From NCBI RefSeq assembly GCF_003334785.1, contig NZ_QOWV01000004.1: DNA of 64,000 nucleotides. One strand, written 5' to 3'. Made by a program: the position numbers and the translations under genes. This document shows, piece after piece, positions 3,008 through 21,615 of the stretch (its first letter is position 1; every line of letters begins with the position of its first letter). The stretch comes from Escherichia coli. Its GTDB lineage: Bacteria; Pseudomonadota; Gammaproteobacteria; Enterobacterales; Enterobacteriaceae. Under the pieces are notes generated by a model. The model worked only from the letters and a program-made list of their open reading frames with translations. It did no database searches and was not told where the DNA came from.

Positions 3008-4615
3008 TCAATGTGCCTTGATATACAACTCTTTGCTGTAGACATAATCCTGGGGATTATGCAGCGGAAAACCGCCAACGTAGGGTTTAAGCAGTTTGAT
3101 TAACGGCTGATAGTAGATAGGAATCAGCGGTGCCTGTTGGTTGATGATCACTTCTGCCTGCTGATACAACGCATTACGCTTTGTCGCATCAGTGATCTGC
3201 GTGGCCTGGTTTAGTAAGGCGTCATACTGCGCATTTTTCCAGTGACCGACGTTTTCTTCACTATCGCTTTTGAGCGTGTTCAGGAAGCTGGAAGCATCAT
3301 TGTACGTCGCATCCCACGACTGCCGAGACAGCATGAAATCACCGGCTCGTCGGGCATCAAGATAGGTTTTCCACTCCATTGTGCGCAGCGTCACCTGTGC
3401 ACCCAGCCATTTTTTCCATTCGGAAGACAACGCTATCGCGGTCTTTTCATGCAGATCGTACTTGTTGTAGAACAGCTCAAAGCGTAGCGGATGAGAGGCG
3501 TCGTATCCCGCCTGTTTCAGCAAGGCTTTTGCCATCGCGACGCGCTCACTCATTGGCTTTTGCAGTTCATCGAACGTCGTCGCGCTAAAGCCTTTTACCT
3601 CTGGCGGCGTCAGCGTGGTTGCGGGCGTTCTCAACCCCAGTACCTTTTGCGCAATAAGCTGTCGATCAACCGTAAGATATAGCGCCCGACGCACTCGCAC
3701 ATCGTTAAATGGCGGTTTCTCAAGGTTGAAGTTGTAATATTCGCTGTTCAGACGCGGAATAATTCGTAGCTCGCCAGGCAGTGATTTTTCAATGGCGGGA
3801 ATTTGCTGCGCCGGAACCCAGGTGAGATCGACCTCTCCCGCGCGATAGCGGTTATAGCCGGTGACCGAATTATCTAGCGCCAGATACTCAACCTGTTGCA
3901 ATACTGTATGTTGCGCATCGCGGTACTTTGGATTTTTGCGTGCAGTAATCTTTTCGTTAACTACCCACTGATCAAGCACAAAGGCACCGTTGTAAACCAT
4001 GTTCTCTGGCTTACTCCAGCTATCGCCATGTTTAGCGATGACATGATGAGGAACCGGGAACAGCGTCGGCCAGGCGAGCATCGTCGTGAACCAAGGAACC
4101 GGCTGCTCAAGCGTAACTTCAAGAGTACGATCATCCGTCGCTTTGACACCCAGCGATGTAACATCTGCTTTACCCGCAACAATAGCTGCGGCATTGTTAA
4201 TGTGCGCCTGTGCCAGATAGCCAGCAAAAGGGCTTGCCGTTTTCGGGTCAACCGCGCGCTGCCAGCCGAGGACAAAATCCTCTGCCGTCAGAGGCTGACC
4301 GTCGGACCACTGCAAACCGCTACGCAGATGGAAAATATAGCGCTTGCCGCCGTCCAGTATCTCCCAGCGTTCAGCCTGAGCGGGCTGCACCTGGCCTTCA
4401 CCGTCCATCCATACCAGACCTTCAAACAGATCCAGCACAATCTGCGCGGCAGTATTCTCCTCCACCTTTTGCGGGTCGAGCGTACCTGGGTCGCTATGAT
4501 TGTTGTAACGAAAGACTTGTTGCGGGGCGAGCGGTGTGTTGGCGGGAACGTCAGCAGCGTAGAGAGGAGCCGCACTTACCAGGCTGACCAGCCATAATAA
4601 ATTTCGCGTATACAT
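3008..4615 (-). CDS. ygiS: periplasmic solute-binding protein (oligopeptide/bile-salt binding family)
   Basis: ORF-track frame 3008..4678; start trimmed to MYTRNLLWLVSLVSAAPLYA (signal peptide), giving 535 aa. Confidence 0.85.
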   Translation of the reverse strand: MYTRNLLWLVSLVSAAPLYAADVPANTPLAPQQVFRYNNHSDPGTLDPQKVEENTAAQIVLDLFEGLVWMDGEGQVQPAQAERWEILDGGKRYIFHLRSGLQWSDGQPLTAEDFVLGWQRAVDPKTASPFAGYLAQAHINNAAAIVAGKADVTSLGVKATDDRTLEVTLEQPVPWFTTMLAWPTLFPVPHHVIAKHGDSWSKPENMVYNGAFVLDQWVVNEKITARKNPKYRDAQHTVLQQVEYLALDNSVTGYNRYRAGEVDLTWVPAQQIPAIEKSLPGELRIIPRLNSEYYNFNLEKPPFNDVRVRRALYLTVDRQLIAQKVLGLRTPATTLTPPEVKGFSATTFDELQKPMSERVAMAKALLKQAGYDASHPLRFELFYNKYDLHEKTAIALSSEWKKWLGAQVTLRTMEWKTYLDARRAGDFMLSRQSWDATYNDASSFLNTLKSDSEENVGHWKNAQYDALLNQATQITDATKRNALYQQAEVIINQQAPLIPIYYQPLIKLLKPYVGGFPLHNPQDYVYSKELYIKAH

Positions 4616-4747
4616 GGTATTCCTTACCGGAGAAATTATAAGCCCAACAACAATACGCCTGTGGCATTGTTCGCTCAAACTTATCGCGAGTGATTTGGCT
4701 CACACTCCGGTAAAGAAAAAAGCGAGTTGCCCCCGCTTTTCCATTAA

Positions 4748-5143
4748 TTAACGGATTTCATTCAATAGTTCTGGATGCTTATCCAGAACACGTAAAAGTT
4801 TGATTGTGGAAGGATGAGGTTGGGCATTGCCTTTTTCGTAACGCGAAAACGCATTTACACCTCCCCCAAAAATTTCGCTTGCCTCTTTTTGGGTAAGAGA
4901 GAGCTTTTTTCGAACCTTCACTATAAATTCAGGTGCCACTGTTTCGGCATTCACCGAAGCCCGAAATGCCTTTACTTGCGCCATGAAAGCATCTGACTCT
5001 TCTTTATTCATGATGCTCTCTTCGCAATGGACACAATATAAACCGTGGATACCTTTCAATACTGTTTTTCGTCCACGGAAGGTGTATGGAATATCTTTAA
5101 TGCCAGAAACCATTTCTCCCTGGTGGCAAACCGGACATTTCAT
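4748..5143 (-). CDS. mqsA: antitoxin / HTH transcriptional regulator MqsA
   Basis: 131-aa ORF MKCPVCHQGEMVSGIKDIPYTFRGRKTVL... with zinc-binding CxxC..CxxC N-domain; immediately downstream of mqsR. Confidence 0.9.
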   Translation of the reverse strand: MKCPVCHQGEMVSGIKDIPYTFRGRKTVLKGIHGLYCVHCEESIMNKEESDAFMAQVKAFRASVNAETVAPEFIVKVRKKLSLTQKEASEIFGGGVNAFSRYEKGNAQPHPSTIKLLRVLDKHPELLNEIR

Positions 5144-5144
5144 A

Positions 5145-5441
5145 TTACTTCTCCTTAAACGAGACGATCAGTACGTCATGAATTACCGTAATTTTAAGAT
5201 AAACCTGGCCTGTAACAAGCCTGGGTCTGTAAACATCCTGTCAGATAGTATGATCAGAGTAGGTGGTCATGCTTTTATAAAAGTCGCTCTCTGATAATCC
5301 AATGATAACATTACACATACCATCAAAATCCAAACCTAACTCATCTGCATTTAACAGGGCACTACGTGTTGTACGAACTTGCCCGGCATTGACAAGTTTT
5401 TTAACCTGACTCAAACGTGTATGTGGTGTGCGTTTTTCCAT
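5145..5441 (-). pseudogene. mqsR: mRNA interferase toxin MqsR, interrupted by in-frame TGA at codon 67 (plus-strand 5241-5243)
   Basis: ORF track gives only 66 aa (MEKRTPHTRLSQVKKLVNAG...TTYSDHTI*); reading on in the same frame past the TGA gives QDVYRPRLVTGQVYLKITVIHDVLIVSFKEK*, the expected MqsR C-terminus. Confidence 0.8.
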
Positions 5442-5470
5442 AACCCCCGCCTCCCTGTTACTTTAGTTAT

Positions 5471-5515
5471 AACCTAAAAGGTTAATTACAGCAATGAAAA
5501 AGCACCTAAAAGGTT
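5471..5515 (-). promoter_or_regulatory. mqsRA promoter with two MqsA operator palindromes (ACCT-N3-AGGT type)
   Basis: aACCTAAAAGGTt at 5471-5483 and cACCTAAAAGGTt at 5503-5515, 30-75 bp upstream of the mqsR ATG (5441). Confidence 0.6.
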
Positions 5516-5645
5516 AGTTAGATGTACGGAGATAGTGACCACACAAAACGTATTCTTTAAGGAAAGTGATTGACCATATAAGAAAGTGGCGCATTAGTAG
5601 CGCCAGTTTGAAGCAGGAATTTATAAGGGAAGCTGGAGTCAGGCA

Positions 5646-6128
5646 TCACGCCAACGGCACATAAACATCCGTTTCCAGTCGCTGCTCTGTCACCCCTTCG
5701 GCAAGATTGGTGTAGTGAAACAGAATCGGTGCTTTACGCATTTTCTCGCCGCTTGCAGGCAGCCAGTGGCGAATGATGCCCCATACCGTGTGTGAAATAT
5801 CGTCCAGCTCGCCAACGTGGCGGGCCACGGCATAACGTCCACCGGTAAGTTCACCATTGCTCACACCATAACGATTATCGGGAATCGGTTCGCTAACGCT
5901 GCCGCAGATATCAAAGCGAAACGCTTCCGGTGCGGTGGTGGCAGGGTCGTCCCAGGCGACGCCAAAAGTCTGGCTTTGGTTAACAGGAGAAAGCCCCGTC
6001 TCTTTACGCCACATGATAAATTTCGCCACGCTGTAGTTGAGCAATTCAGGGCTACAGCGGTGCGGCAACATCGCCACAGGTATTGATGGGAAATCGATAA
6101 TGTTTACATCCAGTGTCAGGTTTGTCAT
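5646..6128 (-). CDS. ygiV: GyrI-like/AraC-effector-domain family regulator
   Basis: 160-aa ORF, position and length as expected for ygiV next to mqsR. Confidence 0.8.
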   Translation of the reverse strand: MTNLTLDVNIIDFPSIPVAMLPHRCSPELLNYSVAKFIMWRKETGLSPVNQSQTFGVAWDDPATTAPEAFRFDICGSVSEPIPDNRYGVSNGELTGGRYAVARHVGELDDISHTVWGIIRHWLPASGEKMRKAPILFHYTNLAEGVTEQRLETDVYVPLA

Positions 6129-6180
6129 TTTGCCTCCCTGCGAAATTATTCCCGGGAACGCGTCCCGGGAGCGGTAACAA

Positions 6181-6573
6181 TTACGGATTTACTTTGCGGA
6201 TCTGTTTGACGTCAATTTCAACAGAATTCCAGTCTTTATCGACTTCACCCTGAATCTCAACCGTATCTTTCGGCGTCACCGTCACGCCGTTCCAGCGTTT
6301 GTGGTCGATATCAACATTGATAGTACCGCTGGCATCTTTGAACACGTAGAGATCGTCAGAGATGCGTTCAACGATATTGCCGCGCAGGGTTACCCAGGTG
6401 TCGTCACGCAGGGATTTTGCGCTTTCTACAGTCGTTACGCTGCCGTTCGGCCCCTGGAATCCTCCGGCCTGACTTTGCGTTGCCGATGGGCCAGAAAAAC
6501 CGCCCTGCTCTGCTGCCATCACCGGTGCGCTGCACAGGGCCATTACTGCGATTACTGCTGCGAATTTTTTCAT
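6181..6573 (-). CDS. ygiW: periplasmic OB-fold (BOF/YgiW family) stress protein
   Basis: Frame 6181..6630; start trimmed to MKKFAAVIAVMALCSAPVMA (signal peptide), 130 aa; divergent from qseBC. Confidence 0.8.
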   Translation of the reverse strand: MKKFAAVIAVMALCSAPVMAAEQGGFSGPSATQSQAGGFQGPNGSVTTVESAKSLRDDTWVTLRGNIVERISDDLYVFKDASGTINVDIDHKRWNGVTVTPKDTVEIQGEVDKDWNSVEIDVKQIRKVNP

Positions 6574-6724
6574 GTTTATTACTCCCTTTAATGTCTGTTT
6601 CCGAGCATTTAACAAGATAGTCCTTAACAACTTCTTAAGGGAAAAAAATAAAATTTAGTGCTGTACAGAGCGCGTTACAACACGGTTTACTGGCAGCAAA
6701 TACGGTTATCGCAGGGATGAAAAA

Positions 6725-7384
6725 ATGCGAATTTTACTGATAGAAGATGACATGCTGATTGGCGACGGCATCAAAACGGGCCTTAGTAAAATGGGTTTTA
6801 GCGTCGACTGGTTTACACAAGGTCGTCAGGGAAAAGAGGCGCTTTATAGCGCACCTTATGATGCGGTGATCCTGGATTTAACCTTACCAGGCATGGATGG
6901 TCGCGATATTTTGCGCGAATGGCGAGAAAAAGGTCAGCGTGAGCCGGTACTGATCCTGACCGCGCGCGATGCGCTGGCGGAACGTGTAGAAGGGCTGCGT
7001 CTGGGAGCTGACGATTATCTGTGTAAACCTTTTGCGTTGATAGAAGTCGCCGCCAGGCTGGAAGCTCTGATGCGCCGAACCAACGGCCAGGCCAGCAACG
7101 AGCTGCGCCACGGTAACGTCATGCTCGACCCCGGCAAACGTATCGCCACGCTGGCTGGCGAACCCTTAACACTGAAACCAAAAGAATTTGCCCTGCTGGA
7201 ATTACTGATGCGTAACGCTGGTCGGGTACTGCCGCGCAAACTGATTGAAGAGAAACTGTATACCTGGGACGAAGAGGTCACCAGTAATGCCGTTGAAGTG
7301 CATGTGCATCATCTGCGACGCAAACTCGGTAGTGATTTTATTCGTACCGTGCATGGTATTGGTTACACATTAGGTGAGAAATGA
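6725..7384 (+). CDS. qseB: two-component response regulator QseB (OmpR family)
   Basis: 219-aa [23 protein letters not shown]..., receiver plus winged-helix domains; 4-bp overlap with qseC. Confidence 0.9.
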
Positions 7385-8730
7385 AATTTACCCAACGTCT
7401 TAGTCTGCGCGTCAGGCTGACGCTAATCTTTTTAATTCTGGCCTCGGTGACCTGGCTGCTTTCCAGCTTTGTCGCCTGGAAACAAACAACGGATAACGTC
7501 GATGAATTGTTCGACACCCAACTGATGCTGTTTGCCAAGCGGTTAAGTACGCTCGATCTCAACGAAATCAACGCGGCGGATCGCATGGCACAGACGCCAA
7601 ATAGATTAAAACACGGTCATGTTGATGACGATGCGCTGACCTTTGCCATCTTTACCCACGACGGCAGAATGGTCCTTAATGATGGCGATAACGGAGAAGA
7701 TATTCCCTATAGCTATCAACGGGAAGGTTTTGCTGACGGGCAACTGGTCGGTGAAGACGATCCTTGGCGTTTTGTCTGGATGACCTCACCTGATGGCAAA
7801 TATCGCATCGTTGTTGGCCAGGAATGGGAATACCGTGAAGACATGGCGCTGGCGATTGTTGCCGGGCAATTGATCCCGTGGCTGGTCGCACTGCCGATTA
7901 TGTTAATCATCATGATGGTACTACTGGGTCGTGAACTCGCGCCGCTGAACAAACTGGCGCTGGCACTACGTATGCGTGACCCTGACTCGGAAAAACCACT
8001 AAACGCGACTGGCGTACCCAGCGAAGTGCGGCCACTGGTTGAGTCGCTAAATCAACTGTTCGCCCGCACACATGCGATGATGGTTCGTGAACGACGCTTT
8101 ACCTCCGACGCAGCTCACGAACTTCGTAGCCCGTTAACGGCGCTGAAAGTGCAAACCGAAGTTGCGCAGCTCTCTGACGATGATCCGCAGGCGCGGAAAA
8201 AAGCACTGCTCCAATTACATTCCGGGATCGATCGCGCTACTCGTCTGGTTGATCAACTGCTCACGCTATCGCGGCTGGACTCACTGGATAACCTTCAGGA
8301 CGTCGCGGAGATCCCGCTTGAAGATCTCCTGCAATCGTCGGTGATGGATATTTACCACACGGCGCAGCAGGCGAAAATTGACGTGCGACTGACACTCAAT
8401 GCCCACAGCATCAAACGCACCGGGCAACCGCTATTGCTAAGTTTGTTGGTGCGAAATTTGCTGGATAACGCCGTGCGCTACAGTCCACAGGGCAGCGTGG
8501 TAGACGTCACGCTGAATGCTGATAATTTCATCGTGAGGGATAACGGCCCCGGTGTGACACCAGAGGCACTGGCGCGAATTGGCGAACGCTTCTATCGCCC
8601 ACCCGGACAAACCGCTACCGGCAGCGGGCTTGGGCTATCGATTGTCCAGCGAATCGCCAAATTGCATGGCATGAATGTTGAATTTGGGAATGCGGAACAA
8701 GGTGGATTTGAGGCGAAGGTAAGCTGGTAA
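7381..8730 (+). CDS. qseC: sensor histidine kinase QseC
   Basis: 449-aa ORF with two TM segments and H-box ...[12 protein letters not shown]... Confidence 0.9.
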
Positions 8731-9108: not shown

Positions 9109-9426
9109 ATATCAGTACGCTCATAAAAATCCATTTATAATTATCAACATGACACGTTGATACTTTCATCTTTTACTTATTCAAAGCCATATTTTCAATC
9201 CCCAAAAAAACCGAACCAAACGTGTAAATTATTCCGGTGCGAGTAAGAATTATGAGGAATGGCTATCAGTATTGTCATTTTCAGAAAATATTTATCCTGC
9301 ATCGGTGAGTCAGAGTAAGATCAGACTTTTGCTAAATTCGCAAAAGACTTTGCACATTTTGCTAATTTCACCGTACCGCTCTGTGACGTACTATAGTCGG
9401 CAAACGTCTCACCTTGAGGTTAAAAA

Positions 9427-21439: not shown

Positions 21440-21615
21440 CGTGAGCGGGTCCATGCCCGACAGAATCGTTACTCTCTCCCATCCGGACTCTAACCGTCGG
21501 CCCCGGAATTACACCGGATCTGCTGTCCTTTGAGTTCGCACCCAAAGCGCTCGCGGGCTTTCAACTGAGTTGATTTACCGCCGGTGGGGAATTTCGCCCC
21601 GCCCTGAGAATAAGC
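21440..21615 (-). promoter_or_regulatory. sroG: FMN riboswitch (RFN element) in ribB leader
   Basis: Minus strand reads ...ggggcagggtgaaattcccaccggcggtaaatcaactcagttgaaagcccgcgagcgctttgggtgcgaactcaaaggacagcagatccggtgtaattccggggccgacggttagagtccggatgggagagagtaacg... Confidence 0.85.

Follow-up and report, generated by a model that had tools for sequence, protein, structure and literature searches.

Does an antitoxin that has outlived its toxin carry on as a regulator in its own right? The question is raised by the mqsRA locus of an Escherichia coli contig (NZ_QOWV01000004.1), of which a stretch of 64,000 nt, here called the window, was analysed. A sequence-only reading of the window had noticed two identical palindromes upstream of a truncated mqsR toxin gene and had proposed that MqsA, with its gene and operators intact, may persist as a stand-alone transcriptional regulator. 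The locus is that of the E. coli chromosome, with ygiW, ygiV, the palindromes, mqsR, mqsA and ygiS following one another on the minus strand and qseBC on the plus strand (Table 1). The first 25 kb of the window are 100% identical to the strains H3, LR-64-2 and NCTC9087, and the 4001 bp from 3397 to 7397 differ from K-12 MG1655 at two bases, 5241 and 7232, the latter in qseB. The module is a toxin-first operon of adjacent genes, and the original mqsR stop lies 1 nt ahead of the mqsA ATG.

Table 1. Features of the mqsRA locus, in window coordinates.
Feature	Position	Strand	Sequence or property	Basis
Terminator-like hairpin 3' of mqsA	4716..4742	-	fold energy -12.8 kcal/mol, z-score -2.49, followed by U-run	
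mqsA, intact	4748..5143	-	131 aa; zinc-finger N-terminal domain, HTH C-terminal domain	PDB match, TIGR03830
mqsR pseudogene	5145..5441	-	98-codon frame; TGG>TGA at codon 67	translation; PGAP 'internal stop'
mqsA ribosome-binding site	5151..5156	-	AAGGAG, 7 nt ahead of ATG; untouched	read from sequence
Promoter-like site within mqsR	5191..5218	-	TTGTTA, 16-bp spacer, TAAAAT; untouched	scan
Premature stop	5241..5243	-	TGA, next base C; mutated base 5241 is T (C in MG1655)	
Candidate pRA core	5466..5494	-	TTGCTG (5494-5489), 17-bp spacer, TATAAC (5471-5466)	relaxed consensus scan
MqsA operator, palindrome 1 (gene-proximal)	5470..5484	-	TAACCTTTTAGGTTA, 15 bp; core ACCTTTTAGGT at 5472-5482; U00096.2 3166595-3166609	exact match
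MqsA operator, palindrome 2 (distal)	5504..5514	-	ACCTTTTAGGT; U00096.2 3166629-3166639	exact match
Terminator-like hairpin 3' of ygiV	5587..5605	-	splits ygiV from pRA	scan

An exact search found ACCTAAAAGGT at the two places where it had been reported, 5472-5482 and 5504-5514, and no third copy in the 64 kb; on the coding (minus) strand the cores of both palindromes read ACCTTTTAGGT. Allowing up to one mismatch added a single further site in the window, 50509-50519, against 0.45 expected from shuffled sequence. Nowhere else in the window do two identical 4+3+4 inverted-repeat 11-mers lie within 60 bp, and 300 simulations of it by a first-order Markov model gave any such pair in 4 cases. The operator centres are 32 bp apart, or about three helical turns. 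The MqsA motif was described by Soo and Wood (2013, PMC4894380) as AACCT N3 AGGTT, present in two copies in p-mqsRA, and both copies were placed on the K-12 genome at the U00096.2 coordinates given in Table 1. The two sites in the window have the form ACCT N3 AGGT (extended AACCT N3 AGGTT) and the same two-copy placement directly upstream of mqsR, at the K-12 positions. A single offset maps both published palindromes onto 5470-5484 and 5504-5514, so that the window has the MqsA operators just as they were published. Judged by sequence and position, they are the canonical and already known operators of the mqsRA promoter pRA, which bears out how they had been read from the letters alone. The operator region as a whole is identical to K-12 MG1655, and the published EMSA and the crystal structure of MqsA on its operator concern the same DNA and the same protein as found here.

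A relaxed scan of 5445-5600 (at least 8 of 12 consensus matches, with A at position 2) left TTGCTG-17-TATAAC as the sole sigma-70-like candidate for pRA. It was not reported by the default promoter scan, and its hexamers were assigned by hand. With the hexamers so placed, palindrome 1 fills the spacer between -35 and -10 and takes in the first two bases of the -10; on the upstream side, 10 bp separate the -35 from palindrome 2. Such an arrangement would suit repression by occlusion, the exact placement of the hexamers being what we infer from the scan. The promoter pRA has been characterised as weak and repressed by MqsA, with 111 AU in the wild type and 369 AU in an mqsRA deletion against a background of 104 AU, and two promoters within the mqsR ORF, pA1 and pA2, express mqsA constitutively and show no autoregulation (Fraikin et al., 2019). 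The position of the TTGTTA-16-TAAAAT site (5218-5191) fits that of pA1 of Fraikin et al., and the two are putatively the same promoter. The base change that disables the toxin lies 23 bp upstream of this pA1-like site.

Translation of 5441-5145 gives residues 1-66 of MqsR, a TGA and then the remaining frame, which is normal through the usual stop. The truncation on which the sequence-only reading had built is thus a single nonsense change, TGG>TGA at codon 67 (W67*), with the rest of the frame intact. Base 5241 is the sole difference from MG1655 at the mqsR locus, and PGAP calls mqsR a pseudogene with an 'internal stop' in the identical genomes. The 66-aa fragment had no match in NCBIfam; it is identified as MqsR because it matches PDB 3HI2 chain B at 66 of 66 residues. 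Residues 67-98 are lost with the truncation, and with them Q68, R72, Y81, K96, K98 and part of the central beta-sheet. K56 and Y81 of MqsR are strictly required for RNA cleavage, and Q68 and K96 are needed for toxicity. Y81 is missing from an ORF that ends after residue 66, and the fragment would be unfolded or inactive.

The antitoxin, by contrast with the toxin, is wild type in comparison with MG1655, as are both operators, so that on this point too the initial observation holds. MqsA is identical at 131 of 131 residues to the K-12 protein, the structures of which have been solved alone and on its operator (PDB 2KZ8, 3GN5 and 3O9X); it scores 146.7 bits on TIGR03830 (cut-off 61.8) and has both the zinc finger and the HTH of the intact antitoxin of an mqsRA module. 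The same protein, WP_000650107.1, was found in all carriers of W67* examined. MqsA is expected to be still expressed because the constitutive promoters inside the mqsR ORF and its own ribosome-binding site are untouched, and it is very probably still made from these promoters. An intact antitoxin adjoining an inactivated toxin remnant, the hallmark of orphan antitoxins and of degraded toxin-antitoxin loci, is what the window contains.

From these elements we arrive at an account of the locus that we consider likely, in which canonical operators, loss of the toxin through W67*, constitutive supply of MqsA and a pRA locked in the repressed state belong together. One MqsA dimer would sit on each operator through its C-terminal HTH domains; with the proximal site in the -35/-10 spacer and the distal one just upstream of the -35, bound MqsA would block RNA polymerase. 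The recent single-base change W67* (TGG>TGA) would have inactivated the toxin, and MqsA would still be supplied by the constitutive promoters inside the mqsR ORF, translated from its own ribosome-binding site. MqsR acts as a de-repressor and not as a co-repressor: it strips MqsA from the DNA at a ratio of about 1:1, because the surfaces of MqsA that contact MqsR and DNA overlap. Since MqsR normally pulls MqsA off the DNA, pRA should stay permanently repressed without functional MqsR, and this locked repression is a prediction of the account. The sole products of the repressed promoter would then be the transcript of a pseudogene and some additional mqsA message. Toxin-antitoxin decay, in which the toxin has to go first, would here be at an early stage, and nothing points to a new regulatory role. 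The account rests directly on the sequence identities, on the truncated mqsR and on the frequencies counted in the population; MqsA binding, repression of pRA, the internal promoters and de-repression by MqsR are taken from the literature on identical sequences.

To place W67* in the species we counted the alleles with 55-mers that have base 5241 at their middle, a design in which every megablast seed spans this base. Among 5426 complete genomes, TGA was present in 16 and TGG in 2282 (about 2298 bear mqsRA), and the module was wholly absent from approximately 3100. In a collection of 15 billion proteins the exact 66-aa product occurs on at least 1000 contigs. The 16 carriers were obtained from humans, pigs, chickens, lettuce, coriander and wastewater in the Americas, Europe and Asia, a range also counted as four continents. 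Over 25 kb each carrier differs from the window by 0-5 SNPs, with 21 SNP sites in total, and some non-carriers are one base away from the window; the allele is therefore recent and sits on a widespread phylogroup-A-like haplotype. W67* is a real, circulating, rare and young allele, and a literature search found no described natural nonsense allele of mqsR.

Both palindromes are kept in all 16 carriers, some of which have acquired further changes close by. A G>T change at 5466 (TATAAC>TATAAA on the coding strand), the last base of the candidate pRA -10, occurs in the strains B2, STK39-3-E, EC529 and P377, that is in 4 of the 5426 genomes, all of them carriers of the mqsR stop. These four also share a stop in a fimbrial usher gene (24610) and the parC change S80I, and form a nested sub-lineage. 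In two other carriers, HSP425 and OZ547038, an IS2 (1330 bp) has inserted at 5215-5220, downstream of the premature stop. The insertion parts mqsA from pRA and from the putative pA2, and the pA1-like hexamers (5218-5191) stay on the mqsA side.

Loss of the toxin alone is found well beyond W67*. With a 396-nt mqsA query, 2299 genomes were matched, one of them by a stray hit of 32 nt; the other 2298 were at least 80% covered, all at 99% identity or more. The mqsR query (297 nt) matched 2298 genomes, of which 2272 were at least 80% covered and 26 were broken; 305 fell below 99% identity, a number to be read in the light of the TGA change in the query, with which each wild-type genome begins one mismatch down. 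The operator pair (61 nt) was matched in 2296 genomes, all at least 80% covered, with 2142 at 99% identity or more and 154 below. Across the species the antitoxin thus appears more conserved than the toxin (at least 99% identity throughout versus 305 genomes below it). In the 2298 genomes mqsR is physically broken 26 times and mqsA never, and an inactive mqsR beside an intact mqsA is found in at least 40 genomes, the reverse in none. The three broken cases examined are independent IS1 events in mqsR on TGG backgrounds, and mqsA is unchanged in each. Two are insertions with 9-bp target duplications (5309-5317 and 5313-5321), and the third, in strain a7, is an IS1-mediated deletion with one end at 5311 that took out the operators as well as ygiV, ygiW and qseBC, with mqsA kept. 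All three events fall within 13 bp of one another, in an AT-rich stretch (5309-5321). The ETEC-like strain 203740, one of those with IS1 in mqsR, has an annotated internal stop in the upstream gene ygiV as well.

Toxin-first loss recurs, then, and that mqsR is found broken and mqsA never is explained by toxin-antitoxin logic, because losing the antidote first would be lethal; no extra role of MqsA is needed. Wherever mqsA was present in the 5426 genomes searched, at least a remnant of mqsR accompanied it. E. coli thus shows no long-lived solitary mqsA, and the module is either present or wholly gone. Across the carriers we counted 0 SNPs in mqsA against 0.33 expected and 0 in the operators against approximately 0.02 expected, figures that derive from 21 SNP sites in 25 kb and have no statistical power. 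With so young an allele and 0.33 mqsA SNPs expected, the intact state of mqsA and of the operators says nothing on selection. The interval 5145-5645, which comprises the mqsR remnant and the mqsR-ygiV intergenic region, has 2 SNPs against 0.42 expected (Poisson P of about 0.07), which is not significant.

Of the proposal that MqsA persists as a regulator, one part therefore stands: MqsA is probably still made and probably still represses its own promoter, pRA. The other part, a selected or wider role, is without a sign in our data, the allele being young and no other credible site having come to light in the 64 kb. In its full form this proposal holds that MqsA is kept by selection once the toxin is lost and works through these palindromes, and similar ones elsewhere, as a regulator on its own, perhaps a global one. 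It can draw on MqsA and both operators being intact in 16 of 16 carriers and MqsA in the three IS1-disrupted genomes, on an identity of at least 99% for mqsA in all 2298 genomes, which leaves room for a function beyond neutralising the toxin, and on the binding of MqsA that earlier work reported at rpoS, csgD, cspD, mcbR and spy. However, the intactness is statistically weightless, for the reason given above, and the asymmetry between broken mqsR and unbroken mqsA is predicted by toxin-antitoxin logic alone. With MqsA near its native level, the regulation of csgD, cspD and rpoS was not confirmed, and pRA is the only uncontested MqsA target. Strain a7 keeps mqsA though IS1 has deleted the operators, and no genome has mqsA without the mqsR remnant, whereas some 3100 lack the whole module. 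Nor did the window yield another credible site within its 64 kb, where a regulon-type search for ACCT N2-4 AGGT in relaxed form was carried out. The suggestion that the same palindrome might be found at other promoters led, in this window, to two loose matches. One of them, 9411-9420 (ACCTTGAGGT, a half-site pair with a 2-bp spacer), is at chance level, since at least 3 matches also arise in 13 of 100 shuffles; the other, 50509-50519, forms the stem of an intrinsic terminator (GCCACCTTTTCGGTGGCGTTTTTT) that lies between convergent ORFs. The pair at 9411-9420 lies 7 nt ahead of the mdaB ATG and probably overlaps the mdaB ribosome-binding site, and the terminator between the two convergent ORFs, at 50498-50523, reads GCCACCTTTTCGGTGGC followed by a T-run. 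That MqsA has become, or is kept as, an independent regulator is unsupported by these findings, and we hold selection for such a role to be quite unlikely. Taken with the three or more independent IS1 knock-outs and the 0 physical mqsA disruptions in 2298 genomes, W67* could mean that loss or reduction of MqsR is favoured and MqsA kept. W67* would in that case be a natural, possibly self-correcting toxin hypomorph that has spread in a phylogroup-A-like lineage in humans, livestock and produce, with loss of MqsR repeatedly favoured and MqsA retained for a function of its own. We consider this broader interpretation rather improbable; if it were true, W67* strains would be ready natural material for the dispute on MqsA targets beyond pRA.

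MqsA might also still be needed as an antidote, in what would be a toxin-antitoxin pair of very low dose, if Trp-tRNA(Trp) reads the UGA at codon 67 and a few per cent of wild-type MqsR is made. The change is indeed TGG>TGA with C as the next base, and UGA is the leakiest E. coli stop, at which Trp-tRNA(Trp) competes with RF2; in K-12 reporters read-through amounts to approximately 2% at 37°C and 4% at 25°C. Poole et al. (1995) reportedly found a UGA with C after it to be the weakest context for termination in E. coli. Because the mutated codon was one for Trp, read-through would restore wild-type MqsR, and the toxin may be strongly reduced instead of absent. The K-12 figures, however, are inflated by the weak RF2 variant of that strain, and repressed pRA is near background, so that a few per cent of its output would be very little toxin. 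In two carriers IS2 has later split the remnant with no apparent harm, and the IS1 knock-outs of mqsR indicate that its complete loss is tolerated. As the repressed pRA is very weak and the IS knock-outs are tolerated, any leak through the UGA would be of little physiological weight, and we regard this explanation as unlikely. Another way in which an orphan MqsA could be of use is in neutralising MqsR-family toxins that arrive on mobile elements. Such an anti-addiction role has been proposed for orphan antitoxins, a recognised class that is mostly read as remnants of decayed modules (PMC7354431). All 2323 mqsR matches in the 5426 genomes are chromosomal, however, and none is on a plasmid, which makes it very improbable here. 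Finally, a single-base change might be an error of sequencing or assembly, but this source of the stop is refuted by the same base in 16 independent complete genomes, by the at least 1000 contigs from several sources with the exact 66-aa product and by the nested derived mutations that define sub-lineages; its probability is negligible.

Decay of the module with the toxin lost first, which we prefer, places the locus among systems that are already known. The K-12 mqsRA operators (PDB 3O9X) have the same sequence, spacing, position and flanking genes and bind an MqsA identical at 131/131 residues, and the only local difference here is W67* in mqsR, 230 bp downstream. Operators, protein and mechanism are textbook for mqsRA; the sequence is identical to K-12, and there is nothing new in them. 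Laboratory K-12 strains with mqsR::Tn5 or an mqsR deletion likewise lack MqsR and have MqsA, and polar and regulatory side effects of mqsR knock-outs on pRA have been discussed by Fraikin et al. In contrast, the genotype in the window is due to a natural point mutation that brings neither cassette nor scar and leaves the internal mqsA promoters untouched, though its stop may be leaky. Degraded type II toxin-antitoxin loci, as surveyed in Klebsiella and Mycobacterium (PMC7354431), also have an intact antitoxin beside a recognisable toxin remnant; compared with them the decay of this locus has only just begun, with one SNP, and operator, promoters and antitoxin are all still wild type. The IS1- and IS2-disrupted mqsR alleles (ETEC O25 strains, HUM3355 and a7) share with it an inactive toxin and an unchanged mqsA (WP_000650107.1), but their mechanism is insertion or deletion (IS1 at 5309-5321; the a7 deletion ends at 5311) and not point mutation, and a7, unlike this strain, has lost the operators themselves along with ygiV, ygiW and qseBC.

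The value of the locus is modest and lies in a natural, scarless MqsR-minus, MqsA-plus genotype that is available from culture collections (e.g., NCTC9087). W67* strains could offer a clean background for the disputed MqsA regulon and for the prediction of locked repression, and the population counts illustrate the toxin-first order of toxin-antitoxin decay.

Some observations on the surrounding DNA concern the lineage more than the module. At parC codon 80 (2631-2633) the window has the wild-type serine (AGC), and of the carriers five have S80I and two S80R; one carrier of the mqsR stop has S458A at parE codon 458 (10922). As these classic quinolone-resistance changes in parC and parE arose repeatedly, parC cannot serve as a neutral marker when lineages are inferred. 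The fimbrial usher gene (22922-25000 and beyond) has been repeatedly inactivated in relatives of the window, by a C>G stop at 24610 in four genomes and by an IS2 after 24365 in strain SHP24. In the identical relatives the annotation places an FMN riboswitch at 21467-21615, upstream of ribB.
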